Origin: a virus
Taxonomy: Duplodnaviria; Caudoviricetes
Virus record (IMG/VR): IMGVR_UViG_3300037067_007633
Coordinates: 1-64,000 of that record
DNA: 64,000 nucleotides
Strand: one strand, 5' to 3'
Shown piece after piece: positions 3,905-31,662 of the stretch. The stretch's first letter is position 1; the number at the start of each line of letters is the position of its first letter. Both the position numbers and the translations under genes were made by a program. The notes under the pieces are model-generated. The model was given only the letters and a program-made list of their open reading frames with translations. It did no database searches and was not told the DNA's origin.

Positions 3905-4315
3905 TTATACCTTTATCTTATCTAAAATAATCATTTTTGTAGCAACAATAACATCATTATAATACTGCGTACCCACAACGATTGGGTTTTGAAATAATAC
4001 TTTAACTTTCTTTTGTAATACAGAATAATTTCTAGCACCTTTTCTAATTCTAAAAATATGAAATCCAACAGCATAATCAACATAATTACTAGATATTATC
4101 GTACCATCAATAGTATATTTATTAGTAGAATGAGCAACTTTATCTACATTAACAGAACCATAATATAGATTTATCTTACCGTAATCATCTGACTTATCTA
4201 CACATTTCCATCCAACATACCAGTTTTGTCCATTATATTTTACCTTCTTACAATTTTCTTCACAATATTTTTTAGCGTCTTTTTTATTATTTATATCAGC
4301 AGTAGATAAACACAT
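3905..4315 (-). CDS. MCL-family paralog (group A)
   Basis: MCL start, WYVGWK, GFHIF, FQNP..VG.Q shared with 11412, 14892, 16385 and 21469. Confidence 0.8.
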   Translation of the reverse strand: MCLSTADINNKKDAKKYCEENCKKVKYNGQNWYVGWKCVDKSDDYGKINLYYGSVNVDKVAHSTNKYTIDGTIISSNYVDYAVGFHIFRIRKGARNYSVLQKKVKVLFQNPIVVGTQYYNDVIVATKMIILDKIKV

Positions 4316-4822: not shown

Positions 4823-5125
4823 TTACCCATCATAATAAGCATCTGATTGAACATCGAAATCACTATCTGGAATTTCCCTATTTAATAATTCCCTAATAGT
4901 CTTCTTTACACTATCTCTAAATTGTTTCCCGGTTTCATTGTCTTCGATAGTACAAAAATCTCTACCTATAGCATAGTTAAAATCACTACAATCTTGAAAA
5001 CGTTCTATACTATAATCCTTTGGTGGCTTTAAAGAATATCTATCAATATCCTTTGGTAATCCAATTCCATAAATACAAAAACTTGTTGTACTGCTATTGC
5101 TTACAAAGCCATTTCTAATTTTCAT
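4823..5125 (-). CDS. FVSNSS-tag protein 1
   Basis: MKIRNGFVSNSSTTSF N-terminus; ends YYDG. Confidence 0.85.
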   Translation of the reverse strand: MKIRNGFVSNSSTTSFCIYGIGLPKDIDRYSLKPPKDYSIERFQDCSDFNYAIGRDFCTIEDNETGKQFRDSVKKTIRELLNREIPDSDFDVQSDAYYDG

Positions 5126-5490
5126 TTTCTTAAAAACTCCATAAAATCATTATAAGTTGGAAATTTATCTTTAATTTCTTGAGCCAAAACTTCTTTTGTT
5201 TTTCCTGTTAATTTAAACACATATTTACTAATATCTGAAGATGATACTGTTTGCATTTGACAAATCGGACAAACTTCTGATGGCGTTTCACCATTATAAT
5301 CATATTCTTGTTCTTCCTCATCTGTCAATTCTCTAACTTGCCTGTCATTACAAAATATGTGACCATTAATACATGTTTTATGTTCTACATCGCTTGCACA
5401 TAAATCCATTCCACAAAATTCTTCTTTACACACATCGTAAACAAAACTTGTGGAGGAACTATTGGAAACAAAACCTTGTCGAATTTTCAT
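5122..5490 (-). CDS. FVSNSS-tag protein 2 (Cys-rich)
   Basis: MKIRQGFVSNSSSTSF; start moved to ATG 5490 to match paralogs. Confidence 0.85.
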   Translation of the reverse strand: MKIRQGFVSNSSSTSFVYDVCKEEFCGMDLCASDVEHKTCINGHIFCNDRQVRELTDEEEQEYDYNGETPSEVCPICQMQTVSSSDISKYVFKLTGKTKEVLAQEIKDKFPTYNDFMEFLRK

Positions 5491-5756
5491 TTTTCTACCC
5501 ATTCTAAATGTGTTTTTCCGCTATCTTTATCTACTGCATAATACATAACTTTATTATCAATAAGAAACTTCGTGTGCACACAATTAACTATATAAGTCCA
5601 CGAAATAAATAGTGGTATTATAATTATTAGTATAAATGAACCAATCGCGTTTGTCGTGGCTTTATACTCTTTATTTACTTGAAAGATATATGAAAATAAT
5701 AATATTAATGATATCGAAGCCGTAACACAAAAAACAATTGACATTAAAATAAACAT
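5487..5756 (-). CDS. small membrane protein
   Basis: two hydrophobic segments; GGAGG RBS. Confidence 0.65.
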   Translation of the reverse strand: MFILMSIVFCVTASISLILLFSYIFQVNKEYKATTNAIGSFILIIIIPLFISWTYIVNCVHTKFLIDNKVMYYAVDKDSGKTHLEWVEK

Positions 5757-5898
5757 TTTGTTATTTAACCTCCAACTTATAATTTACCAAATAAATAGGA
5801 AGGAAACCAAAAAGAAAATACCCATACCAATATAATGTATAATCTCTCATTAGAGAATATTTCTTAGTTGTTATCCACATCTTTTTAACTATCATTTT

Positions 5899-6135
5899 TT
5901 ATTCCTCTATTAATTTTTCTAAATCTTTAATACTGTGTTGTATAGTAGACCCAGATATTTTCTTATAATGAGCTTCTATATAATATAAAATACCACTTTT
6001 TAATTTCACGTTTTCATTAATTACTTTATTTAATTTATGTTTCATAGCGGTTGTTGTTGTATCTAGTCTACAACCACAAATAGTACAAAAATTACCATCT
6101 TGTAATCTATCACAACACTTTATTTTATTTTTCAT
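5899..6135 (-). CDS. hypothetical Zn-ribbon protein
   Basis: CC...CTICG. Confidence 0.6.
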   Translation of the reverse strand: MKNKIKCCDRLQDGNFCTICGCRLDTTTTAMKHKLNKVINENVKLKSGILYYIEAHYKKISGSTIQHSIKDLEKLIEE

Positions 6136-6545
6136 TATAACTCTGTATCGTTAATTTCATCTTCTAGTGTATTAAAAATTTCTTTAGCTAAATCGTCTGA
6201 TAATTTAATAATTGTGATATTTAAATTTTTCCCAAAACCTCTATATAAATGTATTTCTACACTTTCTAATTCTCTGTCTTCATCACCTTCTTCTGGATAG
6301 CTTTTTTCTGGATACATACTAATATAAATAGGTTGATAATATCCAGAAGATAACCAATTAATTTCTAACCTATCAAAATCTTCAATCTGTGGGCATTCTG
6401 AATATATTCTATCTCTAATTTGTTTAGATAGTTTATCGTTACCATCTAAAAAAATTTCGCCTTTCCATAAATCCAAATCAAACCCAGTAGAACCCCGAAC
6501 ACCAGACCATCTACGACCGTCAATCATACAATATCTTTGAAACAT
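6135..6545 (-). CDS. hypothetical protein
   Basis: ORF track. Confidence 0.65.
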   Translation of the reverse strand: MFQRYCMIDGRRWSGVRGSTGFDLDLWKGEIFLDGNDKLSKQIRDRIYSECPQIEDFDRLEINWLSSGYYQPIYISMYPEKSYPEEGDEDRELESVEIHLYRGFGKNLNITIIKLSDDLAKEIFNTLEDEINDTEL

Positions 6546-6551
6546 TTTTAT

Positions 6552-6986
6552 TTAAAACCATAAATAGGAAGTTAAAATGTTGTGATTATCTACAGTTATA
6601 CCATTTTTTCTTAAATTGTCAAGTAGTTCTTTATTATTTGTTTCTGTTGCTTTTCTTAGTAGGTTTGCCCTATGGCTATAATGAAATTTTTCATTGCCAA
6701 CCCATTGAGGTTTGTTAAAAAATATTGGACCATAAATAAACTGCATTTTTTGAAATTTGATTTTATGATTGGATTTACAATATTCATAAAATGTATTATA
6801 ATATTCTATTAAAGCTCCATCATAATCATTCCACATTTTAACTATAGGATGATTTTTCCATCCACTACTTTTGTTTTGTAAAATATCTAATATTTGTTTA
6901 GCTTCTACGACTTGTTTAAAACAACGTCTTTTGTCTAATAATTTGGCAGAAGCTAAAAAATTAGGATAGGGAAGGAATGTTTGCAT
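6552..6986 (-). CDS. pyrimidine dimer DNA glycosylase / MSMEG_6728-like protein
   Basis: MQTFLPYPNF..LD.RR..KQ.VEA.QIL..GW.NHP..KMW, SHRANLLRK. Confidence 0.8.
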   Translation of the reverse strand: MQTFLPYPNFLASAKLLDKRRCFKQVVEAKQILDILQNKSSGWKNHPIVKMWNDYDGALIEYYNTFYEYCKSNHKIKFQKMQFIYGPIFFNKPQWVGNEKFHYSHRANLLRKATETNNKELLDNLRKNGITVDNHNILTSYLWF

Positions 6987-7530
6987 TTTTAGTTCTTTCT
7001 AAAATTCTTTCAAATGATATTGGAGAATAGTCGTTATTCTCAACACATAAATTTCTTGGTCCTAAATGACTATTATTATGTACGTGTCCATATAAATGAA
7101 TGACAGAATTATTTAATTCGTATTCTCTTTTTAATAATGTTCTTTCCCAACACACTTGATTTTCATATATTGGTTTATGAGTAACTAAAATTTTGCTTCC
7201 ATTAATTTCTCTTAGAAAATAATTTAATGTTTCGGTAAACAAATTTTTTAAAATTTTACTTCTAAGAATAATTTTATCATGATTTCCGCAAACTAATATA
7301 ATATTTTTACAAACTATAAATTGACGAATATATTCTATATTATCAATGGAACTATTATGACCAAAAGCAAAATCTCCACCATGAATTAATATATCATCTT
7401 CTTTAACTTCCTTATTAATATTTTTCACTATTGTTGAATTCATTTCGTTAACTGTAGAAAACGGACGATTACAATAACGAATAATATTTCCGTGATAAAA
7501 ATGTGTATCAGAAATAAAATAATAGTTCAT
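6961..7530 (-). CDS. calcineurin-like metallophosphoesterase
   Basis: SDTHF.H, GDF, GNHD, THKP and GHVH motifs. Confidence 0.9.
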   Translation of the reverse strand: MNYYFISDTHFYHGNIIRYCNRPFSTVNEMNSTIVKNINKEVKEDDILIHGGDFAFGHNSSIDNIEYIRQFIVCKNIILVCGNHDKIILRSKILKNLFTETLNYFLREINGSKILVTHKPIYENQVCWERTLLKREYELNNSVIHLYGHVHNNSHLGPRNLCVENNDYSPISFERILERTKNANIPSLS

Positions 7531-7955
7531 ATTTTATATATCCTTTCAAAAAATATTTTAAATTCGGTATCTATATCTTTTTGCAATTGATAAATCTCTA
7601 AATACTCCATTACCATTTTTGTAGCTTCCATTTTTTTATGACCAAATTTGACCAAACTACTAACAGCAAGATCAATAAATTTTTGATCTTTTGAGGTTTT
7701 ATTTGAAATCGTGGGCTCTACAAATCCCACTTCTTTTTTCTTCCTATTTGTTGTTCTTTCAACAAACTTATCACCATTCTCAAATATCGGATCTATATCA
7801 CAGCTTGTAACCTTATTTACATTTGTATTATAACCACAACTACAGCTTATCGTTGCTACATTTTTTATTTGTTCTATGCTACATACTATTTCAGAATTAC
7901 ATTTTGGACATTCATAATGAAAAAAGACAGATACCTTATAAGGTAAAATATTCAT
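7527..7955 (-). CDS. Zn-ribbon protein with RuvA-C-terminal-like helical domain
   Basis: CPKC...CSCG; AVSSLVKFGHKKMEA. Confidence 0.5.
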   Translation of the reverse strand: MNILPYKVSVFFHYECPKCNSEIVCSIEQIKNVATISCSCGYNTNVNKVTSCDIDPIFENGDKFVERTTNRKKKEVGFVEPTISNKTSKDQKFIDLAVSSLVKFGHKKMEATKMVMEYLEIYQLQKDIDTEFKIFFERIYKI

Positions 7956-8119
7956 TGCTTAGTAATCTTGTTTTTTAACTCATTAATAACTTCAGCTAAT
8001 GACTGACTATTACCATTTTCTACCATACATTGATTTTAGATTTAGTGGAATTTGACCATCTGTAATAATCCATTTCCACATATTAAAATAGCCAACTACA
8101 AAATGTAATATTTTATTTA

Positions 8120-8515
8120 TCATGATTGATATACAACCTTCAATTGTTTTTTAAAAATTTCTAACGCTTCTTTAGCTACAACTTTTGGACACTCTGGCAT
8201 ATATTTTAATTCACAACTAATACTACTTAATCTTGTTCTTCCATCATTTGTTTTTTGTAGAACTGGATTAAAAGAATTTTTATAACGCAAATATTTGTTT
8301 TCATTATTTGCGTCATTCCAATCTAAATTATTGTTATCACACCAATCTTCATAAGTTAATATTCCTTGTGGGCGATATTCATCAGCAAAGAATTCTTTTC
8401 TACTATTTCTATTATAAAGACTATAAGAAGTATATACTAGTGTTAAATTCTGTATAGAAAAACACCATTCTTGTTTTGACAAGCCGTTTCTACTGATTCT
8501 TTGTACTTTAATCAT
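8120..8515 (-). CDS. hypothetical protein
   Basis: ORF track. Confidence 0.6.
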   Translation of the reverse strand: MIKVQRISRNGLSKQEWCFSIQNLTLVYTSYSLYNRNSRKEFFADEYRPQGILTYEDWCDNNNLDWNDANNENKYLRYKNSFNPVLQKTNDGRTRLSSISCELKYMPECPKVVAKEALEIFKKQLKVVYQS

Positions 8516-8835
8516 TTTGGAAACATCACCTTAAAAATATCAATATGTAATACTTTATAATAATCGCCTGGAAGATTAAATAATGTTTTCATAATAGAAT
8601 TTTCAACTTTTACAAAAGCACTAAAAGATTTATTACTAGTTCTAACAAACCAGGCTTTTACAATATGTTTTTCATTTGCATATTCTGAAAACTCTACCTG
8701 AATAGCAAAACCGCGTTTTTGAATAACTTTTCCAATTACTGCACGTCCCCATTTTCCATCATAACACACAGACACCAAATCACCCTTTTTAGGATTTAGG
8801 TTTTTTAATGCTTTACTATACTTGTCTTGTTTCAT
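8512..8835 (-). CDS. hypothetical protein
   Basis: ORF track. Confidence 0.6.
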   Translation of the reverse strand: MKQDKYSKALKNLNPKKGDLVSVCYDGKWGRAVIGKVIQKRGFAIQVEFSEYANEKHIVKAWFVRTSNKSFSAFVKVENSIMKTLFNLPGDYYKVLHIDIFKVMFPK

Positions 8836-8991
8836 TATTATTATTTTCTTCTTCTATTGCTTGGTCAAACACTATAGCATAATCTTCGACTGTATATTTC
8901 AACGCTTTTCCTGGTGTTATTTTTTTATGTCTTAAATAAAAATCTAAACTATTAAAAAAATAATCTATTCTTTCTTTTTGTGTACTCATAA

Positions 8992-9645
8992 TTATTTCCT
9001 TTTAACACTTAACTTTTTCATTTTATCAATTGCTTTCTCTAACTTGGGATGCAATCTCTTTATTTGCTCACTACTTCCGTCTTTTGAAATTCTTTGCAAA
9101 TAACTTTTAACTGCCTTTCCCATCTTTCCGAAAATATATGGGCGGTCTGCCAAATCCCATTGCGTATTATGTTTACATAATAATTTGAAGGGCTTATTAT
9201 TAGGAACAGGAATGTTGTAAAAAAGAGGTCCGTAATTGATTTTATAATTACCACAAATACTGATCCACGCCTTATGTTTTTTCCCATAACATTTTAATTC
9301 ATGTTCGGTAGATTCGATAGGTTTGAAAATTTCACTAAACCTAATTTTTTCAGTATTAACATTAACTTCAACATTATCTTTAACTATAGTTACAGAAGTA
9401 TCCGGTAATTGTTTACCCTTAATTATAAATCCAGCTCCACACTTAACACAATTATGGGCTTTTGCTCCATTAACACCACCGCATTTAACACAAACTTTTT
9501 TACCACGTCCCAAACCCGTACTTTCTTTCTTCTCTATTAATGGATTTTTTGTTTGATAAAATGTGTAGCCACACTTTGAACACTTAGAACTTCTAGCAGC
9601 ATTTTCAGCACCACACTCTAAACAGTCTTTATGACCTTTAGCCAT
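8992..9645 (-). CDS. tandem zinc-ribbon protein
   Basis: two GxKxCxxCGxxNxAxxxxCxKCGxxF repeats. Confidence 0.75.
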   Translation of the reverse strand: MAKGHKDCLECGAENAARSSKCSKCGYTFYQTKNPLIEKKESTGLGRGKKVCVKCGGVNGAKAHNCVKCGAGFIIKGKQLPDTSVTIVKDNVEVNVNTEKIRFSEIFKPIESTEHELKCYGKKHKAWISICGNYKINYGPLFYNIPVPNNKPFKLLCKHNTQWDLADRPYIFGKMGKAVKSYLQRISKDGSSEQIKRLHPKLEKAIDKMKKLSVKRK

Positions 9646-9647
9646 GT

Positions 9648-10055
9648 TTAAAATCTCTCAAAGTGACCGTCACGATTAGTAAAATATACTTCTTTGATAC
9701 CAAAATCAGATATCAATTTTTGACATTTTTCACACGGCTTAGACATACTCATTTTTCCATCCATAGAAAAACGCATATTAACCATAGTAACATTATGTAG
9801 AACATATGGGGGAAATTCAAAATTTAAAATAGCGTCTAGTTCTGAATGAATGCTGTCGAATCTCGTTCCGTATTTTCTTCCCATTGGATGAGTCTTAAAA
9901 GCTTTAGACCATCCCACAGACATAACCCGACGACGAATTAATAGGAAGGTAATATGGCGGTGTTTACTAGGGGGAATAATCTCTAGTAGTTTTCTGGCTT
10001 TTCGGATTAGAAAATCTAAATTTCTCATTCCTTTATTATACAGTATTTTTTCCAA
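9648..10055 (-). CDS. zinc-dependent cytidine/dCMP deaminase-fold protein
   Basis: HSELDA and SKPCEKC motifs. Confidence 0.8.
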   Translation of the reverse strand: MEKILYNKGMRNLDFLIRKARKLLEIIPPSKHRHITFLLIRRRVMSVGWSKAFKTHPMGRKYGTRFDSIHSELDAILNFEFPPYVLHNVTMVNMRFSMDGKMSMSKPCEKCQKLISDFGIKEVYFTNRDGHFERF

Positions 10056-10071
10056 AAAGCAACTATAATAT

Positions 10072-11049
10072 CTACCTATTTTTCTTTCCTTCTAAATATC
10101 CATTACCAACTAATTTCAAAATAACCCTTCCAAGTCTAATATCCATTCTCTCTATTAATGGTTTAATTACACAACCCTCACGAATATGATCTGTATAAAG
10201 CATGGTAGATTTACCCTCTGCTAGTTGTTCTGCTATTTCAAAATTAAATGGACCAGAATATAATACTGGAACTCTTTGGATTTTATAATCGTCGCACATT
10301 TTTTCAAAATCTTTAACATTCAAAAAACATCCATTTTCCCAAATATCAAAAGCTATAAATCTTGATCCTTCTGTAATTCCATATTTATATCCTTTAACTT
10401 TTCCATATACTTCACCAAACATAATAGTATCTGGATGGCTATAACAAAAATCTTTTAATTGTGGGCAGTTATAATAAGCATTCCACCAAGCATTGTTTTT
10501 ATCTACAGCATTCCAGTTTGTTCTACTTCCACAAAACATTTCACCATTATGATAACAATACCTTCCGTTTTGCCCTTCAATTTTTTCCGTTATATTTACG
10601 TGTTCGCCATCTTTAAATATATGCATTCTTCCTCTAATATTATCAATATCATATTTAGAAGGAAGAATCATTGATGGACCACAAATATGATTATTGTTAT
10701 TTAAACTACTAGTATTTTCTAATTCTGGTTCATAATGACCGATTTCTAATATATTAGCAACATCATCACCAAGTTTTACACCAATAGGAGGTTTGATAAG
10801 TAATCCCATTGAAATAACTCCACGTAATTTCTTTACTCTAATTCTTTCGGTTTTTAGAAAAGAAAATTCTGGGCGAGAAGTTTTAACTAGACTATCTGGT
10901 TGAATATATACTCCAAGATCACCATCTTTCCAATCTTCTGTTTTTACACAAACTGAAAAACCGCCAACTTTAACAATGCTTAATGAATCTGCATTTGGAT
11001 GTTTTTCAAGTTTAATTTGTACAACTTCAGCTTTATGTGTATTACTCAT
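10072..11049 (-). CDS. ATP-dependent RNA ligase, DRB0094/Rnl5-type
   Basis: N-terminal OB-fold (HPNADSL), motif I TEKIEG, FGEVYG, AFDI, EGCVIKP. Confidence 0.9.
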   Translation of the reverse strand: MSNTHKAEVVQIKLEKHPNADSLSIVKVGGFSVCVKTEDWKDGDLGVYIQPDSLVKTSRPEFSFLKTERIRVKKLRGVISMGLLIKPPIGVKLGDDVANILEIGHYEPELENTSSLNNNNHICGPSMILPSKYDIDNIRGRMHIFKDGEHVNITEKIEGQNGRYCYHNGEMFCGSRTNWNAVDKNNAWWNAYYNCPQLKDFCYSHPDTIMFGEVYGKVKGYKYGITEGSRFIAFDIWENGCFLNVKDFEKMCDDYKIQRVPVLYSGPFNFEIAEQLAEGKSTMLYTDHIREGCVIKPLIERMDIRLGRVILKLVGNGYLEGKKNR

Positions 11050-11055
11050 ATTAAA

Positions 11056-11415
11056 TTATCCATCATAGTACATTGAACTATATCTTTTTGGAAGTGGAAA
11101 ATTATTCTTTTTTGCAAAATCGTCCATAACTTTAATTTGTTCTTTAGAAATATCTTCTCTTGGCATATCACCACATTCAGGATGTAAATCTGTTTCAATT
11201 ACAGACAATCCAATTACTTTATATAAATAATCATGATAATAAACTGTATTAACCAGATCTTCAAAATCTTCGCGAGAATTTATACTATCGTCTTCTATTA
11301 GTCCTTCAACTATTTTATTAAATAATGTTTTGTCTTTAAAATCATATTCTTTATATCCATAAACTATAAAACTTGTAGTAGAACTATTGCTTACAAAACC
11401 ATTTCTAGTTTTCAT
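11056..11415 (-). CDS. FVSNSS-tag protein 3
   Basis: MKTRNGFVSNSSTTSF; ends YYDG. Confidence 0.85.
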   Translation of the reverse strand: MKTRNGFVSNSSTTSFIVYGYKEYDFKDKTLFNKIVEGLIEDDSINSREDFEDLVNTVYYHDYLYKVIGLSVIETDLHPECGDMPREDISKEQIKVMDDFAKKNNFPLPKRYSSMYYDG

Positions 11416-11864
11416 AAACCATTCCTCTTTAATATGTTTTGTAGTTTTTTATGTCTTGGATTGAAAATAATCATTTCATCCGCAACAACACAGTTACCAC
11501 CGTTTTGTAATCCAACAATTCTCGGAAATCTAAATAATACTCTGATTACATCATGGTATGTATTAGCATAGTCTTTTGCGGTGTAATAATTACTAAAAAT
11601 ATGAAATCCTGTCAAATATTTTTTATAAGAAGTCATTGTATGTGCCGAGTTTTGAATAGTTTGTAGTGTTTTATCAAATGATCCGTGTTGGTTAAATAAA
11701 GAAGAAAAAGAATCATAACATATTACAACGCTTTTATATCCTAAATACCAAATTTTACCTTTATATTTAACTTTTTGTAGATGCGAATTACACCATTTTG
11801 TAGAAAGATCAATATTATTTATATAATTTCCGCAATTTGTAGTCTTAATATCACTTAAACACAT
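11412..11864 (-). CDS. MCL-family paralog (group A)
   Basis: MCL, WYLGYK, GFHIF, FRFPRIVGLQ. Confidence 0.8.
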   Translation of the reverse strand: MCLSDIKTTNCGNYINNIDLSTKWCNSHLQKVKYKGKIWYLGYKSVVICYDSFSSLFNQHGSFDKTLQTIQNSAHTMTSYKKYLTGFHIFSNYYTAKDYANTYHDVIRVLFRFPRIVGLQNGGNCVVADEMIIFNPRHKKLQNILKRNGL

Positions 11865-12067
11865 TCTACTTCCTCCCTAAATAAAAATAAGTCTTTATAA
11901 ATATTTTTAACAACTTTCAACATTATTTTTTTATCTTTAGTGTTTGCAACATTATTGTTGATAAATATTTCTCTATTAGTCAAATAGCACATCAAATCAG
12001 ATAGTTTAATATAAACGTCTTTTTCAGTAGGGTGTATTATATAATCAACATTTATTGAGTTGTTCAT
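11855..12067 (-). CDS. hypothetical protein
   Basis: ORF track. Confidence 0.55.
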   Translation of the reverse strand: MNNSINVDYIIHPTEKDVYIKLSDLMCYLTNREIFINNNVANTKDKKIMLKVVKNIYKDLFLFREEVECV

Positions 12068-12818
12068 TTATATATAATACTTCGCTCAATGGTGTTAAAC
12101 TATTGTGTTCTCCTATAACTTTGTAGTGGCATACCCTAATCTTGTCACACGTAGAATCTTGTGGAACCGATATTACATCACGAGGATTTACTTTAACGGT
12201 GAGTATTTTTCCGTCAGAATGAAAACATCTAATATAATCTAAATTACCAACATGCCAACCAGTAGAACAATCTTTAAGTTTATCATCATCTACTTTGTTC
12301 CTCGGCATATCAAATTCAGCACCAACCTTATTTAAAAATGTTCCAGAATACCAATCATAATAATCCGGTCTAACTGTTTTATAAGCTATAAAACAACCAT
12401 CCTTAGTAATGGGTAGTGATTTTCTAGTTAAAAACTCAACCACACTATCTACTGCCCACTTAGAAGGATTATCCATAAGATTATTCATAAATTTCATCCA
12501 AGGACGAGGATTTAATCCTTCAGAAATAAATCGTAGTATTAAATCAGCTAATGTTGAATGTACTTCTTCTTTATTATAAAAAACCTTATTGTTTTTAACA
12601 ACAACTTTACCAGAAGTGTATTTAGAAACACACTTTGGTATATCTAAAAGTGTTTCTATTTTCTTAAAATTTTTATGTCTCTTCTTTAGTTCTACTAATA
12701 AATTTTTATAATTAGTATTAGTTTTATCAACAACATACATTTTACCATTTAGGTTAATATTTAAAGTATCATCACCACATTCAACTACAACAATATAGTT
12801 TTTCTTTTTTTTAATCAT
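12045..12818 (-). CDS. rIIB: rIIB-like protein
   Basis: ITKDGCFIAYK..D.YSG.F.N.VG..M.R..VDDD..CSTGWHVG; directly downstream of rIIA. Confidence 0.85.
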   Translation of the reverse strand: MIKKKKNYIVVVECGDDTLNINLNGKMYVVDKTNTNYKNLLVELKKRHKNFKKIETLLDIPKCVSKYTSGKVVVKNNKVFYNKEEVHSTLADLILRFISEGLNPRPWMKFMNNLMDNPSKWAVDSVVEFLTRKSLPITKDGCFIAYKTVRPDYYDWYSGTFLNKVGAEFDMPRNKVDDDKLKDCSTGWHVGNLDYIRCFHSDGKILTVKVNPRDVISVPQDSTCDKIRVCHYKVIGEHNSLTPLSEVLYINEQLNKC

Positions 12819-12823
12819 AATAA

Positions 12824-14908
12824 TTAATTTTCCTTTACTTGTTTAACATATTGCATAATATCTTTAATATTCTTATTAGAAATACCATCATATGATTTTG
12901 TAATATACTTAATCATAAAATATTTTTCTATAATTTGATTCCATAGGTTTTGTAATTTATGTTTTGGTTCTACAACAGTAAAAAACACACCAACTGAATT
13001 AAATAATAATTTCCATTCTTCTAATGAAATATTTTGTTGCTCAATAGTTTTAGTAGAAACATTTAGTTCATCTATAGCATCACAAAGTTCTTTAAATAAT
13101 AAATTTTGTTGAATAAATTCTACCGGAAACATTTTTATATTATCAATAATTTCATCACAATTATTATAATACTCATCAGCGTTATAAAAGTCTTGTAAAA
13201 AACCATCGTTATTTTTTCCATTAACTATTGATTGAATGTATTCGTATAAGTTAATCCACTTTTTATTTTTATTTATTTTATTAACAGTAGATGCTCTAAC
13301 ACCATACAAACAAAAATCTTTATTATATTTTGTAAGTGTATTTATAATTTTATTAAAAGAAAACCAATTTCGAGTAGGCAATCCGTTTCTAATATTAATA
13401 GGAAGGTATCTTCCCAGTTCTACGTAAAATCCACCGTTATTTAAATCTATTTCTGATTCTACCCAGTGGGCATAATCAGAATTATAGTGTGTATCTCTGT
13501 ATTTAAATATTTTAGATTTACTAGCATATTTTACAGAAGAATCATTTTTGATCCTTTCTTGTTTTGGCAAAGAAGAAACTTTAATAATTTCTTCAGGTAA
13601 ACAATCTAATTTATCTATTAATTTCTGACTTATTTTACTAAATAAATATACTACTGAATGAGTATCACGTACACACTTTAAACACCTAGAGAATGCACCC
13701 TTTTTTGGTGCTATGTCATTTTCTACCAAAATCACATTGCTAAAACAATTTACATTCGTTAGTGGTTTTTGTAAAGCTACCCTTTTAAATCGTCTTGTTT
13801 TTTCAAAAAACACAAAACTATCTTGTGTATCTGTCGAATCAAAATAAATAATATCATTATATAATAACTTATTATTCCACTTTAAAGGAAGTGTAGAAAT
13901 AATATTAAATCCTTTATTAATATTACATAAGTAATGTCTTTTTTTTCTAGCTTCCCATAAAGATTTGCAGGTAGAAATTTCTGTTTCAACTTGTAGTTTA
14001 ATCTCATTAGCAATATCTTCTGCTACATCTAGAATGTAATTTATTGTTTGTTTGTCATACTGTAAGTGTTCTCTACTTGGAGTAATATTAACACTTCCAA
14101 TATCAACAAAAATATCAAGTCCTTTAACGGTTTCTAAAAAATCTGATTGCGAATTTAAACTTTTTACATTTAATGGATAACAAATATTACCCATGATAAT
14201 ATTTATATCATCAAAACCATTCCAAAGTCTTACTTTCCATTTTCCGCTTTTACTTTCATGTATATATTTAATATCTTCTATTTTGTATAAAGAATTACCG
14301 GAAATATTTGGTTGTATTTTAAAATACTTATATACATTTTCTGCTTCTGTACAAAATCTATCAAAATCTAAATTATTAACAGGAATACTTACTAATAATC
14401 CAGACTCTTCTAAAGTATCCTCACTGCCCATATTGGTAATATTAGGCACACCATTACTACCAATATAAAGAGCATAATTTGTCCTTTTACCTTGGTAATA
14501 TGAAGTAACACTAAACGATCTTGTATAAGCAAAAGGGCTCTTACTTCCTAGTCCTAAACATCCAACAAAATCATTAGACTTAATTTTATAACTACCACTT
14601 TGAAAATATGTGGTATATAAATTCATAATGTCTTCTTCAGACATTCCCGGTCCATAATCCCTAATTGTAAATGTGGGATTAAATTTTCCTGGTAAAATTA
14701 CATTAAAAGGAATATTTAGTTTATTAGAAAAAACGTGGGCATCATAAGCATTGGTACTTAGTTCACGAATTACTGCTCGGATCTTGTTAGAATAAATGCC
14801 AGACGATAGGATGCTATAAGCGTGTGGTGTAGCAGCAATTGAAAACGTCTTAGTTTCTTCTACATCACCAGAAATTTTTACTTTACCGCAATCATTTGTA
14901 ACAAGCAT
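12824..14908 (-). CDS. rIIA: rIIA-like GHKL ATPase
   Basis: LSSGIYSNKIRAVIRELSTNAYDA, IRDYGPG, GCLGLGSKSPFAY, ITPSREHL; start placed at ATG 14908. Confidence 0.9.
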   Translation of the reverse strand: MLVTNDCGKVKISGDVEETKTFSIAATPHAYSILSSGIYSNKIRAVIRELSTNAYDAHVFSNKLNIPFNVILPGKFNPTFTIRDYGPGMSEEDIMNLYTTYFQSGSYKIKSNDFVGCLGLGSKSPFAYTRSFSVTSYYQGKRTNYALYIGSNGVPNITNMGSEDTLEESGLLVSIPVNNLDFDRFCTEAENVYKYFKIQPNISGNSLYKIEDIKYIHESKSGKWKVRLWNGFDDINIIMGNICYPLNVKSLNSQSDFLETVKGLDIFVDIGSVNITPSREHLQYDKQTINYILDVAEDIANEIKLQVETEISTCKSLWEARKKRHYLCNINKGFNIISTLPLKWNNKLLYNDIIYFDSTDTQDSFVFFEKTRRFKRVALQKPLTNVNCFSNVILVENDIAPKKGAFSRCLKCVRDTHSVVYLFSKISQKLIDKLDCLPEEIIKVSSLPKQERIKNDSSVKYASKSKIFKYRDTHYNSDYAHWVESEIDLNNGGFYVELGRYLPINIRNGLPTRNWFSFNKIINTLTKYNKDFCLYGVRASTVNKINKNKKWINLYEYIQSIVNGKNNDGFLQDFYNADEYYNNCDEIIDNIKMFPVEFIQQNLLFKELCDAIDELNVSTKTIEQQNISLEEWKLLFNSVGVFFTVVEPKHKLQNLWNQIIEKYFMIKYITKSYDGISNKNIKDIMQYVKQVKEN

Positions 14909-15317
14909 TCTTAAATATTTCCTTTTCTTTTTTGTAATCAAAAACAATAATTTTGTCTGCAACTACAACATTTAAATTGTCTTGAACACCAATAATTCTA
15001 GGAAGTTGAAATAAAACCCTTTTTACATTATAACCAAAACTGTATGTGCGAGCATCTTGTCTATTTGTAAGAATATGAAATCCAGTATTATAATAATCAT
15101 CATAACTCAAATTACATCGTATGTATACTTTAATTGACTCATGAATAACATTAAAATCGTAATCATTATGAAATAACGATAGTTTATTATCAATTGTTGG
15201 ACAATACTTCCAACCAACATACCACCAACTATTTCTATATTTTATTTGTTTTAAATTTTTATCACAAAATTCTTTTACATTTTTCTTGTCTCGCAAAAAT
15301 ATTCTATCTAAACACAT
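14892..15317 (-). CDS. MCL-family paralog (group A)
   Basis: MCL, WYVGWK, GFHIL, FQLPRIIGVQ. Confidence 0.8.
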   Translation of the reverse strand: MCLDRIFLRDKKNVKEFCDKNLKQIKYRNSWWYVGWKYCPTIDNKLSLFHNDYDFNVIHESIKVYIRCNLSYDDYYNTGFHILTNRQDARTYSFGYNVKRVLFQLPRIIGVQDNLNVVVADKIIVFDYKKEKEIFKNACYK

Positions 15318-15318
15318 A

Positions 15319-15714
15319 TTATTTGTCCTTATTTAAATATATACAAATAAACACACTAATAATTGATATAACGAGTGTTAAAAACACTATTGGAATAAAT
15401 GACAACAAATAACCTATGATAGATCCAACTGTTAATAATTTAATCTTTAAAAGTAATTTTATTTTTGTTTTAGAAATTGCCTTATTAGGTGGTTGAAAAC
15501 TATCTTTGAAAAAAAGTTTTCTACCATAACCATTATCTTCAGGAACATAATGATTACTATGATCGTCCCACCAATGTTTGTGTTTAGGACACGCAGCTAT
15601 AACATTTAATGTACATTTACCAGTTCTGCTATCATATTTTTCTGTAGAAAAATCTGGCATGTGTACTAATAAAGATCCACATTTAACACAATATTCTTTT
15701 TCAAATTCTACCAT
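15319..15714 (-). CDS. Zn-binding protein with C-terminal TM helices
   Basis: CVKCG...CPKH; hydrophobic tail. Confidence 0.65.
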   Translation of the reverse strand: MVEFEKEYCVKCGSLLVHMPDFSTEKYDSRTGKCTLNVIAACPKHKHWWDDHSNHYVPEDNGYGRKLFFKDSFQPPNKAISKTKIKLLLKIKLLTVGSIIGYLLSFIPIVFLTLVISIISVFICIYLNKDK

Positions 15715-15729
15715 TTTTAAACTCCTTTA

Positions 15730-15864
15730 TTAATGATGACTAATTTTCAAAACAACACCAAGCTTCTCTACAACTCCGTCATGTTCCATAACGGGCAGTT
15801 TATCTAATCCTATGATTAAACTACTAGAACTAGAGTTTGAGACAAACCCATTTCTTATTTTCAT
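15730..15864 (-). CDS. FVSNSS-tag peptide 4 (44 aa, below the ORF-track cutoff)
   Basis: translated by hand: MKIRNGFVSNSSSSSLIIGLDKLPVMEHDGVVEKLGVVLKISHH. Confidence 0.75.
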   Translation of the reverse strand: MKIRNGFVSNSSSSSLIIGLDKLPVMEHDGVVEKLGVVLKISHH

Positions 15865-15866
15865 AA

Positions 15867-16100
15867 TTATTCACTTTCTACATAATAAGTAATATTGTTT
15901 TTCTTTAATTCGTTTTTAATTTCCGTTAATCGTAAACAATCATCTTCGTCTGTATCACCATAATCTGTAATACTAGTTCTAAAAACGCCTGGTAAAAATT
16001 CATGGGCGTTTTCATTTATTAATAAGGGTAGATCTGTTTTATAATATATAGTGAAACTTGTTGAGCTTGAGTTTGAAACAAAACCAATTCGTGTTTTCAT
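15867..16100 (-). CDS. FVSNSS-tag protein 5
   Basis: MKTRIGFVSNSSSTSF, ATG at 16100. Confidence 0.85.
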   Translation of the reverse strand: MKTRIGFVSNSSSTSFTIYYKTDLPLLINENAHEFLPGVFRTSITDYGDTDEDDCLRLTEIKNELKKNNITYYVESE

Positions 16101-16101
16101 A

Positions 16102-16413
16102 TTAACAACTCCTAGTTCCCATATAAACTTTAATTCTAGTAATATCAATGTTATTATTCTTAGCTATCTCTTTTGCTTTACTTTGCAATTCTTTTAGTGT
16201 ATAATTTTTATTATCTAATTGTTCATCTGTTGAAGGAACTAAATGAACACCTTGATAATATTCTCCATCATCACTTAATGCTACCAAAGAATATATATCA
16301 TATTCATGACTTTCATTTCTCAAATTTGTAACTTCATCTTCTGTAAGTTTATAACCTAAAATAACAAAACTCGAAGAGGAAGAATTACTTACGAACCCGC
16401 TTCTTATTTTCAT
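16102..16413 (-). CDS. FVSNSS-tag protein 6
   Basis: MKIRSGFVSNSSSSSF, ATG at 16413. Confidence 0.85.
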   Translation of the reverse strand: MKIRSGFVSNSSSSSFVILGYKLTEDEVTNLRNESHEYDIYSLVALSDDGEYYQGVHLVPSTDEQLDNKNYTLKELQSKAKEIAKNNNIDITRIKVYMGTRSC

Positions 16414-16803
16414 TTTCAATTTTCCTTAATAGTTTTACGTCTGGAATCATCATTTTATCAGCAATTACAATAGACGAACCATATTGTTTTCCTATTAATC
16501 TCGGTTCTTGAAATAAAACTTTAGAAACACCACTCCCACTATATATTCTTGCATCTAATCTAGTTAAACAAATATGAAATCCTGTTATATAACTATATTC
16601 TTGATTTTTTATAGACTTTAATATAACATTAAAATGATGGTAGGTGTCATATAAGTAAAATCTTTTAATTGTTGAATTATTATAAATATTTATTTTCCAT
16701 CCAACATACCAAATCTCACTATTATATTTTACTTTTCGTAAATTTTTTCACAATATGATTTAACTGATTCTGAATCATAATTTGTAACATAACTTAAACA
16801 CAT
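16385..16803 (-). pseudogene. frameshifted MCL-family paralog
   Basis: MCLSYVT...YCEK then stop; adding one A to the A6 run (16743-16748) gives CEKNLRKVKYNSEIWYVGWK...TGFHIC...FQEPRLIGKQ...IADKM, open to TAA at 16385. Confidence 0.85.
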
Positions 16804-16897
16804 TTAATAATCTCCTTAATATAATTTCAAATTACTAGTTATAGGATCAATTTTTCCTCTTCGCGTTTTTAAATCTTTGCGTATTACAATTACTTGT

Positions 16898-17092
16898 TTA
16901 ATCAATTCTTTTCCACCTATAAAGAATATAATTTTCTAAATCAATTATTTTATTACATACAGAACAATGACAATAATATGCGGGATTCTTTTCGTTCATA
17001 TCGTTATATATTACATCTGATTGAAATATTTCTAAAATAGCATTACACTCTTTACAAGCAACTTGTATATTTGATTGTTTAATTATATTCAT
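16898..17092 (-). CDS. small Zn-ribbon protein
   Basis: CKEC...CSVC. Confidence 0.65.
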   Translation of the reverse strand: MNIIKQSNIQVACKECNAILEIFQSDVIYNDMNEKNPAYYCHCSVCNKIIDLENYILYRWKRID

Positions 17093-17134
17093 ATTTTATA
17101 GAAAGGACAATTTCTATTATTTTCTAGTAGTCGC

Positions 17135-18220
17135 TCACGCCACTTGTTTATTATCTATACTTTTTATTAACCAATTAAAAGAATTATCAATAATTAATTC
17201 TCTATTTAATAAATATTCTTCTTCTTTTATAATTAATAAATCTATATCTGGTATTGCTGAATAAATTTCTTTCATCCTTAATTCATCATATTCTTTATAA
17301 CATGGGAAATAATGATATTTTTCATTAAATTCAATCCATTTTTTATATTTAGGTATATAAAAATCTAAAAATCTTACATATCTAAAATTGTTTTGATATA
17401 CTTGAAATTCCCCCTTGTTAGTAGCATAAAAAATAACTAATTTATTATCAATAGCTAATAATTTATCATTTAATGTATTAAATAATTCTTGTGATGTAAC
17501 AGAAAAATTTGGTATATTATTTGAATATAATCCAATATTATTATACATTTCTTGACGAATTTTTGGGACGTGTGAGCATGTACCATATTTTAACAATTTT
17601 GTTTGTTTTACTTTGTCTTTTACCGATTGTAACTGTTGAGTAAATTCAACACCGTATTTTTTTAAATTAGTGTTTTTTGTAGAAATTAATCTTTGTTCTA
17701 GAAAACTACTATATTCTCCGTTGTATTTTAATTTACTATAAAATGATTGTAAACCGTTTTGTAACTTTTCTAAATTTTCAGCAGATATTGTGGGGTGTAT
17801 AATTTTACAATATTCAGAAAATGTTAAATTAGTATTGTGTTCTTTATTATATTTAATTAATCTATTATTAGCTGACTTTATACCTTTTAAATATTTAATT
17901 TCTTCTTTGCTATACTTATTAATAATTGTTTTTATTCTTTTATCTTTTTGATCTTCTAATAAACCATCTGAAAATATAGGAGAATTTGGATATTGCTGTT
18001 TATATTCTTGTTGTGTTATATTATGTTTTTTTAAATGTGTGTTACTAATATTTCTTAACTTTTGTTTACAAATTTGACATTCAACCTTTGGTCTAGTATC
18101 TATTGGTTGATTTTTCTTTTCTTCTAACCATTTATAATAACAATCTTTATTAAGTTTTCTATGTGATGCTAATCCTTTTGTCCCATTAAACCCGTCTCTA
18201 TTACAATATTTACATTGCAT
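17135..18220 (-). CDS. free-standing homing-endonuclease-like protein (Zn fingers, KYG repeats, DUF559/Vsr-like nuclease)
   Basis: CKYC..H, CQIC..THLKKH, NLKKYG/LLKYG repeats, C-terminal LDFYIP..KWIEFNE.YH; start placed at ATG 18220. Confidence 0.75.
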   Translation of the reverse strand: MQCKYCNRDGFNGTKGLASHRKLNKDCYYKWLEEKKNQPIDTRPKVECQICKQKLRNISNTHLKKHNITQQEYKQQYPNSPIFSDGLLEDQKDKRIKTIINKYSKEEIKYLKGIKSANNRLIKYNKEHNTNLTFSEYCKIIHPTISAENLEKLQNGLQSFYSKLKYNGEYSSFLEQRLISTKNTNLKKYGVEFTQQLQSVKDKVKQTKLLKYGTCSHVPKIRQEMYNNIGLYSNNIPNFSVTSQELFNTLNDKLLAIDNKLVIFYATNKGEFQVYQNNFRYVRFLDFYIPKYKKWIEFNEKYHYFPCYKEYDELRMKEIYSAIPDIDLLIIKEEEYLLNRELIIDNSFNWLIKSIDNKQVA

Positions 18221-18240
18221 AATATATGAACCTATAAAAC

Positions 18241-18331
18241 AAGCCACCGATTACAGAGGTATTCCCCAACACCTATAATAGTAACCGATGGCTTTAGATT
18301 GTATTTTTTGAGTTGGGGAATAATCTCTATA
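18241..18331 (-). promoter_or_regulatory. structured leader / attenuator-like RNA switch
   Basis: 14-bp stem (two G-U pairs on the minus strand) plus U-rich tail; its loop GTTGGGGAATA is complementary to upstream TATTCCCCAAC. Confidence 0.6.
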
Positions 18332-18334
18332 AGT

Positions 18335-19444
18335 TCATACACCAATTTTATAAAAAGGGCAATTCCTTTCATTATCTAATATTGTTTGTCTCCATCTATT
18401 TACTTTTTGACAACTCCATATTTCGGAAATATTATTATATTCTAAAATATTAACGCCTTCCTCACATCCACTTAATCCTTCACAAAAACTACATGGAAAC
18501 ATTTCTCCAAAAACACTAATGTACCCAGAAAATAGTGTCATTTCACATTTTTCTGCGTATTGAGATAGCTCTTTCTTCTCCTCCTCAGATTTATTACTGT
18601 TTGCAATATACCTATTATACATTCCCGCCGAACAAGAGTCAAAACCATATTTAACTTTTGTCCTATCTAATTCCTCTATTAATTTTAAATAGGAAGGAAA
18701 AGTGATGGGATTATAAAATCCAGTCTTAGCTTTATCCTTAAATGACAACATTACCAAAGCGTTCATCTTTGATAATCTGGGGTCATTTGTCATATCAAAA
18801 ACAACAGACTTTATAAAATCTATAGTTTCCTCAGCAAGCACAATATGAATGTTAATTTGGGACATTCCGTTATCTTGTGATAACTTCTTAATTGCGTCAT
18901 AGGCAATTTCTTTATTGTGAGAATTAACAGATACAGCTATTGCTCCGCATAGTTTGGATAGTCTTTCTGCTATTTCTTCAGTAAGACCATTTCCGGTTGT
19001 AGTTAAATTTGGAATTATATTACGCCTACGTGTTTCTTCTAATATATCAAATAGTTGAGGATGACTATAAATATCCGTTATACCATACGCAACTTGGGTG
19101 GGACTATATATATTATTTGCAATATAAAATCTATCTAAAATCTTGCCAAGTAATTCTAAACTCATATGTCGAGTTTTACTACTCTTAGAATTCTTATAAC
19201 AAAACTGGCATCTACCAGAACAACCACCATCCGTTACGAAAGTCCCCTCAACTTCCCTATTTACATCTTCAGGAGAAGCTGACGAAATTTCAATGTCTAA
19301 TAATTCGGGAAATGGGGCGACTTGTGGATCATCTTCTTGCGTAGCCCCCCACCTTTGAAAATATCCTGTTTGTTTATCAAAATTGTAATTATAGATATTA
19401 CTACGGCAACACTTACTTTTTGAATTTTCAATAATTTTTAACAA
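18335..19444 (-). CDS. radical SAM protein with SPASM/twitch-like C-terminus
   Basis: CSGRCQFC (CxxxCxxC), TTTG, C-terminal CEM..YI...GEMFPCSFC...CP. Confidence 0.9.
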   Translation of the reverse strand: MLKIIENSKSKCCRSNIYNYNFDKQTGYFQRWGATQEDDPQVAPFPELLDIEISSASPEDVNREVEGTFVTDGGCSGRCQFCYKNSKSSKTRHMSLELLGKILDRFYIANNIYSPTQVAYGITDIYSHPQLFDILEETRRRNIIPNLTTTGNGLTEEIAERLSKLCGAIAVSVNSHNKEIAYDAIKKLSQDNGMSQINIHIVLAEETIDFIKSVVFDMTNDPRLSKMNALVMLSFKDKAKTGFYNPITFPSYLKLIEELDRTKVKYGFDSCSAGMYNRYIANSNKSEEEKKELSQYAEKCEMTLFSGYISVFGEMFPCSFCEGLSGCEEGVNILEYNNISEIWSCQKVNRWRQTILDNERNCPFYKIGV

Positions 19445-19455
19445 AGTTTATTTCC

Positions 19456-19824
19456 TTATATCTTCACAAATAAACAACAAAATTGAGTCGGAATATTATT
19501 ACGATAATTTATTTTAGTAATACTTTCTAATACAAACCCTTCATCGTATTCCTGTTGTATTCTATCAAGAAAAGTCATAGCTGGAATAATTTTTAAATAA
19601 CATGTTAATGAATTTTGAGATTTGTTAGTTATAGAAAACGTATGCATCACTTTGTATTCATCATATATAACAAGTTCACTACCATCCCAAATACGCGACG
19701 GTATATTTCTAGATAAAATATTCAACTCTTTGCACTTTTCTATAACAAAGAAAAACGCCTTACTAAAATCATTAAAATTATAATCATTACCAGAAATACC
19801 ATCTATTCTAACTTCATATTGCAT
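19456..19824 (-). CDS. hypothetical protein, paralog of 20292-20681
   Basis: shared V..(D/N)G.S...Y.FNDF..A..F.I.KC. Confidence 0.7.
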   Translation of the reverse strand: MQYEVRIDGISGNDYNFNDFSKAFFFVIEKCKELNILSRNIPSRIWDGSELVIYDEYKVMHTFSITNKSQNSLTCYLKIIPAMTFLDRIQQEYDEGFVLESITKINYRNNIPTQFCCLFVKI

Positions 19825-20291: not shown

Positions 20292-20681
20292 TTACTTTAC
20301 CTTATAAATAAAAACACAATCAAATCCAACTGTTTTCATTAAATTATTATCAAAAACAGCCTGTGAACTAAATAATATATAGTTATTAGATTCTCTTTCT
20401 TTTATCTTGTTTTGTATCTCATCAAGAGGTATATATTCCATAAAACAACGAGTATCATTTGTTTCTTCAACAACAACAATTTGCATAGTTTGTATATAAC
20501 CATAGTTATTAACAACTTTAAATATATTATGATCTTCAAGTTCACTAATAGTTGGGCAATATCTTTGTTTAATATAATAGTTCAAACATTTATCAATTAA
20601 GAATATATACGCCCTAGCAAAATCATTAAATATATAAGTATTATCTGAATATCCATTAAATATTACTTTAAATTTTTTCAT
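20292..20681 (-). CDS. hypothetical protein, paralog of 19456-19824
   Basis: shared N- and C-terminal motifs. Confidence 0.7.
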   Translation of the reverse strand: MKKFKVIFNGYSDNTYIFNDFARAYIFLIDKCLNYYIKQRYCPTISELEDHNIFKVVNNYGYIQTMQIVVVEETNDTRCFMEYIPLDEIQNKIKERESNNYILFSSQAVFDNNLMKTVGFDCVFIYKVK

Positions 20682-22300: not shown

Positions 22301-22342
22301 TTAATAAGAACAGATAAAACATTAGAAAATCTATAACATCAG

Positions 22343-22415
22343 TAGGGGAGGTGAGATTTGCACTCACGGTCTTTTGCTTAAAAGGCAAATACATTGACTA
22401 CTATGTTACTCCCCC
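22343..22415 (-). tRNA. tRNA-Lys(UUU)
   Basis: GGGGGAG/CTCCCCT acceptor; anticodon arm TTTGC-CTTTTAA-GCAAA; T arm GTGAG-TGCAAAT-CTCAC; no encoded CCA. Confidence 0.85.
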
Positions 22416-31389: not shown

Positions 31390-31485
31390 ATAAGAGTGAG
31401 GAGGAATAGGAGAAAGGCAGGTGATCCTAAAATATCTCCGGTTCATTCTTAAATATATATACCTATTCCTCTTCATTTTTATTAT

Positions 31486-31557
31486 AGTGGGGTAGAGTAG
31501 CGGCAACTCGTCAGACTCATAATCTGGAGACCGTGGGTCCGAATCCCACCCCCACAA
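31486..31557 (+). tRNA. tRNA-Met(CAU), possibly initiator-like
   Basis: anticodon arm TCAGA-CTCATAA-TCTGG; T arm GTGGG-TCCGAAT-CCCAC; 1:72 mismatch. Confidence 0.85.
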
Positions 31558-31662
31558 TTTTCCGTCCGTTGTAAGCTCTTTCAACGCTTTATATTTTTAT
31601 TAAAAGGGCAAGAGGGGGCAACTCACAGCCCCCTCTTTTACTTTGTATTAAAGGAGATTTAA

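Follow-up and report, generated by a model that had tools for sequence, protein, structure and literature searches.

Why do six proteins encoded in one segment of a phage genome begin with the same short peptide, and does a radical S-adenosylmethionine (SAM) enzyme encoded nearby act on it? The segment analyzed here, which we call the window, is 64,000 nucleotides long and comprises the first 64 kb of a 160,177-bp IMG/VR phage record (IMGVR_UViG_3300037067_007633, designated G000), a genome of 27% G+C with a CheckV completeness of 85%. An earlier inspection of the window (the original prediction) had reported six open reading frames (ORFs) with a common N-terminal tag and proposed that a co-oriented radical SAM enzyme modifies it. 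All six ORFs are present, each on the minus strand and each starting MK(I/T)RxGFVSNSS(S/T)(S/T)S(F/L), and a seventh tagged gene lies at 125.8-126.3 kb. The tag keeps company with a single radical SAM family in hundreds of phages and in some defense islands of bacteria, a pattern that suggests an undescribed system for tagging or modifying proteins. The tagged genes and the enzyme gene are as follows.

4823..5125 (minus): tagged protein, 100 aa, ending YYDG; 'FCIYG' body subfamily (body cluster 2, 19 members)
5122..5490 (minus): tagged protein, 122 aa, with a Cys-rich zinc-ribbon-like body (body cluster 0, 26 members)
11056..11415 (minus): tagged protein, 119 aa, ending YYDG
15730..15864 (minus): tagged mini-protein, 44 aa, consisting of the tag and the C-terminal EHxG...ISHH of the phrog_7397/RB16p111-type subfamily
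15867..16100 (minus): tagged protein, 77 aa, in the three-gene array
16102..16413 (minus): tagged protein of 103 aa with the C-terminus GTRSC; opens the three-gene array that lies downstream of the enzyme
18335..19444 (minus): radical SAM enzyme, 369 aa, TTG start, co-oriented with the tagged genes
G000:C1:125762-126316 (minus): seventh tagged gene, 184 aa, same genome, outside the window

A degenerate DNA pattern for GFVSNSS has seven matches in the window, six of them real, versus 0.35 expected from shuffles. In three of the genes the ATG of the motif is the true start (5490 rather than 5502, 16100 rather than 16148, and 16413 rather than 16419), and a Shine-Dalgarno-like element lies 6-12 nucleotides upstream of it. 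Over codons 1-16 the seven copies of the genome are 84% identical in protein and 72% in DNA sequence, with 133 synonymous versus 54 non-synonymous codon differences, and the serine codons of the tag switch between the AGY and TCN boxes among copies. Selection thus acts on the tag peptide and not on its DNA, as had been proposed. Protein identity drops to 10% over codons 17-32 and BLASTP between copies aligns residues 1-20 or 1-24 only; similarity ends at about residue 18, profile-profile comparison included, and the bodies do diverge after the tag. The two proteins correctly reported to end in YYDG (4823-5125 and 11056-11415) are similar to one another only over residues 1-20 by BLASTP.

The tag is widespread. 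A search of IMG/VR with a tag DNA pattern recovered at least 119 stretches, many with two to six clustered copies, and these gave 238 distinct complete tagged proteins of 20-305 aa, with 89 BLAST clusters of bodies among 236 proteins. A tag profile built from a 63-sequence alignment matched 26,267 clusters at E<=0.001 and 2,798 at E<=1e-10, in a search space of 1.84 billion sequences in which clusters are 50% identity representatives. The cultured phage RB16 carries the tag on RB16p111 and RB16p106. RB16p106 ends GGGYDG, resembling the two YYDG proteins of the window, and RB16p111 matches the phrog_7397 profile over positions 1-170, the full family, while all seven proteins of the present genome match only positions 1 to 21-35 of 170. 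Beyond this tag-only phrog_7397 match, no family was found for any tagged protein in Pfam, NCBIfam, PHROGs or PADLOC. Nor did we find an entry for the tag, or for the tag-enzyme pairing, in Pfam, NCBIfam, PADLOC or the literature on the motif and on phage SPASM enzymes, in agreement with the claim that no characterized system has this motif. A tblastn search of isolate phages with the 184-aa protein returned nothing, probably because the low-complexity filter masks the tag.

Five metagenomic proteins (P0041, P0043, P0044, P0047 and P0097) have two tags, and each represents a pair of neighboring tagged genes translated as a single product. The second tag starts in every case with a Met of its own, and gene-calling read-through or recoded stops are the probable cause.

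Does the tag occur independently of the enzyme clade, as the original prediction had allowed? It does not appear to: among 50 tag-bearing viral contigs of at least 100 kb the phrog_7293 enzyme is found in 45, including all 23 that are at least 90% complete, the five contigs without it being 26-40% complete. As background, an enzyme homologue is present in 173 of 50,697 isolate phage records, and an RB16p111-type tagged protein is present in 175, from the same host genera as the 173. At short tag-anchored loci the enzyme was the only recurrent neighbor family, occurring in 44 loci. The reverse test used 80 loci retrieved solely by an alignment of the enzyme and extended by 10 kb in both directions. 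Strict tag ORFs are present in 71 of these and variant tags in four more (75/80 within 10 kb); three of the remaining five have the motif elsewhere on the contig and the other two are fragments that are 2% and 9% complete, so that tag genes are found on the contig at 78 of the 80 enzyme-found loci.

The arrangement is also regular. The tag ORFs lie on the enzyme strand in 265 of 266 cases, the nearest tag gene starts a median of 415 bp from the enzyme, and 260 of 304 tag genes are downstream of it, with up to 13 tagged genes per single enzyme. The 80 enzymes have a median identity of 44.5% and form 51 clusters at 60% identity, and many enzyme lineages have therefore been sampled. After the enzyme itself, the commonest families at these loci are tagged body subfamilies (28, 26, 25, 24 and 21 loci), and the best untagged family reaches 12/80; no gene family other than the tag and the enzyme is a consistent neighbor. 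Gene order is thus otherwise scrambled around the enzyme, yet its link to the tag has been kept. Over more than 50 enzyme lineages, co-occurrence in both directions, synteny and co-orientation strongly support the conclusion that enzyme and tagged proteins constitute one system, and the proposal that the two belong together is further upheld by an independent bacterial cassette described below. This coupling is as well supported as comparative genomics allows.

The enzyme gene of the window lies 1.9 kb upstream of the three-gene tag cluster, in good agreement with the co-oriented position about 2 kb upstream that had been reported. One gene separates them.

17135..18247 (minus): 370 aa, between the enzyme and the tag array, with N-terminal zinc fingers

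This gene had been called an endonuclease, an identity that was not confirmed; its product gives weak matches only, to DUF7487 (E 1.4e-4) and to ROS/MucR and C2H2 zinc fingers. It is probably an insertion and outside the system, because elsewhere in phages the nearest tag gene starts a median of 415 bp from the enzyme. The window layout is thus the common plan of an enzyme followed by a tag array, with one gene inserted.

How sharply is the tag defined? We took 269 proteins from the enzyme-anchored loci, in which the tag anchor fixes only M1, position 9, N10 and positions 11-13. At the positions left free, K2 is conserved in 97%, R4 in 99%, G6 in 94%, F7 in 98%, V8 in 95%, S15 in 98% and F16 in 93%; with S9, N10, S11 and S12 included, these residues are 93-100% conserved, and the information content collapses at residue 19. 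The consensus is M-K-(I/T/V)-R-x-G-F-V-S-N-S-S-S-S-S-F-(I/V)-(I/V). Tag, modularity and genomic coupling to the enzyme are demonstrated. Rare tag variants, such as S-F-V-A for G-F-V-S or F or Y at position 6, are common to all copies within one phage, and homologues of the same bodies elsewhere keep the canonical tag, a pattern compatible with tags that co-evolve with one shared partner or that undergo gene conversion among themselves. Co-variation of S6 with A9 was seen in 5/7 cases, which are too few and not independent.

Two known types of site were considered for the tag and rejected. A glycyl-radical site at G6 is not in keeping with the S, F or Y found there in every copy of some phages (loci L178 and L201); glycyl radical enzymes have a strictly invariant Gly in an RVxG(F/Y/W) loop, and G6 is conserved in 94%. 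A formylglycine motif of the sulfatase type, (C/S)-x-(P/A)-x-R, does not occur in the tag.

What kind of enzyme accompanies the tag? The window protein matches PF04055 (E 6.6e-10; 39.8 bits versus a cut-off of 29.5) and phrog_7293 (E 1.4e-66), and is the single copy of its clade in the whole genome. C75 and C82 are found in all of 37 homologues and C79 in 35 of them, and this CX3CX2C motif together with the PF04055 match above cut-off places the window protein in the radical SAM superfamily. Four C-terminal cysteines (C271, C300, C318 and C362) are also invariant in the 37 and would fit one fully ligated auxiliary cluster. The CX2CX5C of the window protein is not conserved in the clade, the CX2C partner C321 being present in 7/37. 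Pfam and NCBIfam scans of the window enzyme gave no SPASM match (PF13186 or TIGR04085), and the seven-cysteine SPASM motif (CX9-15GX4C ... CX2CX5CX3C ... C), which binds two auxiliary clusters, is not present. The description of its cysteines as SPASM/twitch-like therefore stands in part: the four invariant cysteines are twitch-like and the full SPASM motif is missing, and given that the window protein falls short of the SPASM models, it appears to be better described as having one auxiliary cluster of the twitch type. Twitch-type enzymes (BtrN, SkfB, MoaA) have a C-terminal domain that is shortened and carries one such cluster.

By profile, SkfB (E 4.4e-4) and the C-terminal twitch region of BtrN (E 2.7e-3) come closest among solved structures, both as weak matches. 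The enzyme probably falls within the SPASM/twitch branch, in which the solved enzymes act on peptides, proteins or alcohols. NCBIfam returned 14 matches at E<=0.1, all far below cut-off, and neither anSME nor FxsB is among them. About 70 residues preceding CX3CX2C are conserved among the homologues, whose database names are generic only, some having been named AslB-like automatically.

Just upstream of the enzyme gene are two small minus-strand ORFs (19456-19824 and 20292-20681) that by eye look like mutual paralogues, sharing ...NDF(S/A)(K/R)A(F/Y)...(E/D)KC... near the N-terminus. Neither has a PHROG match, and they are not kept beside the enzyme in other phages.

How is the tag placed relative to the bodies? 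An AlphaFold2 model of the 184-aa family has a mean predicted local distance difference test score (pLDDT) of 91, with residues 1-10 below 50 and strand 1 formed by residues 13-19; a model of the 103-aa protein (16102-16413) has a mean of 74, with residues 1-11 below 50 and a strand at 13-23. The models thus suggest that tag residues 13-18 enter the fold and that the most conserved residues, 1-12, are unplaced. An hhalign comparison of two body families aligned columns 1-27 and nothing beyond. The question raised earlier of whether the tag is simply strand 1 of a shared fold consequently has a divided answer, as residues 13-18 do begin strand 1, but residues 1-12 are unplaced and the families share at most 27 columns.

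These results bear on an explanation in which enzyme and tag have no function in common: the tag would be the best-conserved N-terminal element (strand 1 with its lead-in) of one very fast-evolving phage superfamily, and the two would keep company through shared descent and through hitch-hiking where early regions are hyperplastic. That residues 13-18 begin strand 1 in both models is compatible with this, as are the C-terminal endings (G-x-x-x-x, ISHH) that BLAST-unrelated subfamilies have in common, a hint of common ancestry, and the membership of many contigs in related large phages. However, 93-100% conservation over residues 1-16 with an abrupt stop is atypical of a strand in a diverging fold, and a common fold is not evident from hhalign past column 27. 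The enzyme link also persists where other neighbors are not conserved, and it recurs with translational coupling in bacterial cassettes from many phyla. We consider this explanation improbable.

The bodies themselves offer few clues. Fold searches with the 184-aa model matched no known fold, with best scores of E 0.098 against the PDB with Foldseek, Z 4.3 with VIA-align wide, and E 0.076 against BFVD, and an ESM Atlas look-up returned unnamed viral clusters only. The 184-aa protein shows two conserved motifs, TCNYDTY and TCNNH, as well as a C-terminal CxxC pair, and its gene sits between a macro-domain gene and a dNMP-kinase gene. A degenerate metallophosphoesterase was considered for the 184-aa family and rejected, with no support from fold or hidden Markov model searches. 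The 5122..5490 protein has weak rubredoxin and zinc-finger matches, and its body subfamily is the most widespread, being present in 26/80 enzyme-anchored loci. Homologues of the 16102..16413 protein align with the same tag and a C-terminal G-T-R-x-C, and the 15867..16100 body has no BLAST relative among the 236 tagged proteins. The 44-aa ORF (15730-15864) has the EHxG...ISHH C-terminal motif, found in 11/392 tagged proteins versus 1/6087 background ORFs, and is either an internally deleted or a minimal member of the RB16p111-type subfamily. Some subfamilies share endings such as G-x-x-x-x after a hydrophobic strand, ...GRDG, ...YDG or ...ISHH; a universal C-terminal motif was rejected, G at position -5 being present in 42/392 tagged proteins. 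No body has a known function, and calling the tagged proteins an effector set is a guess.

The tagged genes are accompanied in the window by a second multi-copy family, also on the minus strand (3905-4315, 11412-11864, 14892-15317 and ~16406-16747), that has no match in Pfam or PHROGs. Its three intact copies share 34-37% identity and start M-C-L, and a fourth copy is truncated N-terminally; conserved motifs are WYVGWK, GFHI and VLFxPxIVGxQ. Two copies immediately precede tagged genes, and one of these runs 4 nucleotides into the start of 11056-11415. The family is absent from all other tag or enzyme loci fetched.

What, then, might the enzyme do with the tag? We propose a two-component module, of which the window holds one copy. 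A radical SAM enzyme having just one twitch-like auxiliary cluster is paired with a group of client proteins, and every client has the N-terminal tag ahead of a fast-evolving and often unrelated body. The first ~12 residues of the tag would protrude from the folded body and be bound by the enzyme, with MKxRxGFV serving as a docking strand, and 5'-deoxyadenosyl radical chemistry would then alter a residue in the invariant S9-N10-S11-S12; a Ser could be oxidized in the manner of anSME or BtrN, or the reaction could be a crosslink or an epimerization. The phage may express enzyme and clients from one early co-oriented block around rIIA/rIIB and so give a variable protein repertoire one common chemical feature. 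Binding, covalent modification, its site, and any host-takeover or counter-defense role are what we infer, binding and modification from the class of the enzyme, from a conservation that is extreme and sharply delimited, and from the modularity of the tag. That the enzyme binds a protruding N-terminus and chemically changes a residue in S9-S12 seems to us an evenly balanced proposition.

Several observations weigh against this reading. Four of the seven tagged genes of this genome lie 7-107 kb from the enzyme and phages of the RB16 type have tagged genes ~20 kb from it, so that local synteny does not hold everywhere. The contigs include many related ones, and the counts given above overstate the number of independent events. 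The low pLDDT of the first residues is no proof that the N-terminus is free or disordered, and the Pfam and NCBIfam scans detected no leader-binding (PqqD-like) recognition element (RRE) in the enzyme.

In the main rival explanation the tag serves as a docking handle and itself stays covalently unchanged, and the tagged proteins are interchangeable adaptor or specificity subunits, or regulators, whose variable bodies aim the enzyme at other targets. The genomic coupling is equally expected on this account, and it would accommodate the hypervariable bodies, some of which are leucine-rich repeat (LRR) target-binding domains, the large number of tagged genes per enzyme (up to 13), and the proximity of the bacterial form to a STAND/Avs2-like sensor. 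But the invariant run of small polar residues, S-N-S-S-S-S-S, would be unusual for pure docking and looks more like a reaction site, the solved SPASM/twitch relatives (SkfB, anSME) act directly on a co-encoded peptide or protein, and there is no candidate third-party substrate. We regard the docking handle as unlikely, and both the shared-fold explanation and a further one, in which the tag is a sorting or signaling peptide, as less likely than it.

Is the pairing of tag and enzyme restricted to phages? Running the same tag DNA pattern on GTDB species genomes gave 119 stretches, and in 78 of these 119 bacterial tag loci the enzyme lies inside the 8-kb locus. The enzyme is paired with a single tagged gene in 64/78, most often of 132-137 aa. 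A recurrent order, seen in ~30 loci from many phyla, is a 758-925-aa protein (STAND NTPase), a ~133-aa protein, the tagged protein and the radical SAM enzyme, in some cases with an additional ~300-aa protein. The cassette of Veillonella parvula (L343, locus 5598-11122) has five genes, encoding proteins of 925, 136, 137 (tagged), 338 and 302 aa. In the 925-aa protein a trypsin-like protease is joined to a NACHT/Avs2-like NTPase. Tagged gene and enzyme gene overlap by 4 nucleotides, and the 338-aa radical SAM enzyme has a full SPASM motif (CX2CX5CX3C) and a PF13186 match. The large protein of another locus has weak NB-ARC/STAND matches, and in another the equivalent of the last Veillonella gene matches an integron-cassette Pfam family. 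Bacterial tagged proteins reach 811 aa, and some long tagged proteins carry LRR domains. The five-gene cassette is a candidate for an undescribed defense system. The untagged 133-136-aa partner was considered as a paralogue of the tagged protein and rejected, there being no detectable similarity.

An assembly labeled Flagellimonas marina (L231/L337) includes a 178,077-bp contig with two tagged genes and an enzyme close to the RB16-type model (E 2e-268). This contig is likely to be a contaminating T4-like (RB16-like) enterobacterial phage.

The neighboring STAND NTPases and the N/S-rich composition of the tag could also be taken to mean that the tag is a sorting, assembly or signaling peptide operating without radical chemistry, whether for T4-like virion packaging, as a degron, or as a STAND amyloid-like motif; T4 internal proteins are a precedent for a short N-terminal peptide on unrelated phage proteins. 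The tag has no Glu-type prohead-protease site, however, and the STAND protein that was examined lacks a matching motif. With the constant company of a single radical SAM clade also left unexplained, this is in our view very improbable.

Returning to modification of the tag, the broadest form of the proposal is that one enzyme clade covalently modifies a 16-residue N-terminal tag on tens of thousands of otherwise unrelated families, that phages arm arrays of early proteins in this way, likely for host takeover or counter-defense, that bacteria use it in STAND-NTPase-linked immunity, and that it is a new post-translational modification of whole proteins. We advance this tentatively, as a serious possibility that falls a little short of an even balance. 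If the enzyme does modify the tag, 26,267 clusters matching the tag profile would be concerned by a new modification of whole proteins, radical SAM/SPASM chemistry would reach beyond peptides to a protein tag that is portable, a handle on hundreds of hypothetical early phage genes would be gained at once, and phage gene arrays would be linked to STAND-type immunity cassettes. The tag occurs in phages that are cultured and tractable (RB16, RB43, KP15, KP27 and relatives) as well as in bacterial defense islands.

The tag region of the window is a block of small early-type genes, all on the minus strand, which includes a dCMP-deaminase-like gene and the following.

6961-7530 (minus): phosphoesterase
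10072-11049 (minus): RNA ligase
12045-12818 (minus): rIIB
12824-14908 (minus): rIIA

Elsewhere in the window are four tRNA genes.

22342-22415: tRNA Lys-TTT
31485-31558: tRNA Met-CAT
32803-32886: tRNA Leu-CAA
33762-33837: tRNA Ile-TAT

The region 36900-44500 has a G+C content of 0.37-0.43 versus ~0.27 elsewhere, and within it there is no ORF longer than 179 aa (in table 11, with TAG read as Q, or in table 4) and no Rfam family at gathering score.

How does the system compare with those already known? Maturases of ribosomally synthesized and post-translationally modified peptides (RiPPs), namely SkfB and the sactipeptide, ranthipeptide and streptide enzymes, are similar in that one radical SAM enzyme with a C-terminal Fe-S region is encoded beside multiple substrate genes whose products have a conserved N-terminal part and a hypervariable remainder, and SkfB is the best profile match of solved structure. 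In contrast to leader-core peptides, the clients here are whole proteins (44-305 aa, median ~130, and to 811 aa in bacteria), and both modeled client bodies fold confidently, unlike short RiPP precursors. Conservation here is confined to 16-18 residues at the very N-terminus, the system is carried mainly by phages, and no protease or exporter partner was detected around the enzyme/tag loci.

anSME/AtsB and BtrN are likewise SPASM/twitch radical SAM enzymes, and the cysteine-bearing C-terminal region of the phage enzyme has its weak match to the twitch region of BtrN. anSME acts on a Ser or Cys of a full-length protein, and BtrN oxidizes an alcohol. The present system differs from anSME in that the tag lacks (C/S)-x-(P/A)-x-R, the NCBIfam matches include no anSME model, and the bodies are not sulfatases. 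The internal proteins of T4 are unrelated, fast-evolving phage proteins that share a short N-terminal capsid-targeting sequence. That sequence is a different one, its Glu cleavage site does not occur in the tag, and the tag here has a radical SAM companion; a T4-type capsid-targeting sequence was rejected as the identity of the tag on the lack of a Glu site.

The nearest analogue in print is the FxSxx-COOH/FxsB system treated by Kaur et al. 2020 (PMC7159879). As described there, its motif is C-terminal, it is released by a metallopeptidase, and the system is actinobacterial; measured against that description, the motif here is N-terminal, has no conserved peptidase partner, and is accompanied by an enzyme without an FxsB match in NCBIfam. 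Kaur et al., citing Haft and Basu 2011, describe a radical SAM/SPASM gene beside small, fast-diverging proteins that keep a short terminal motif, and connect the system with STAND (AP-ATPase) conflict systems; the bacterial form of the present system too follows a STAND NTPase.

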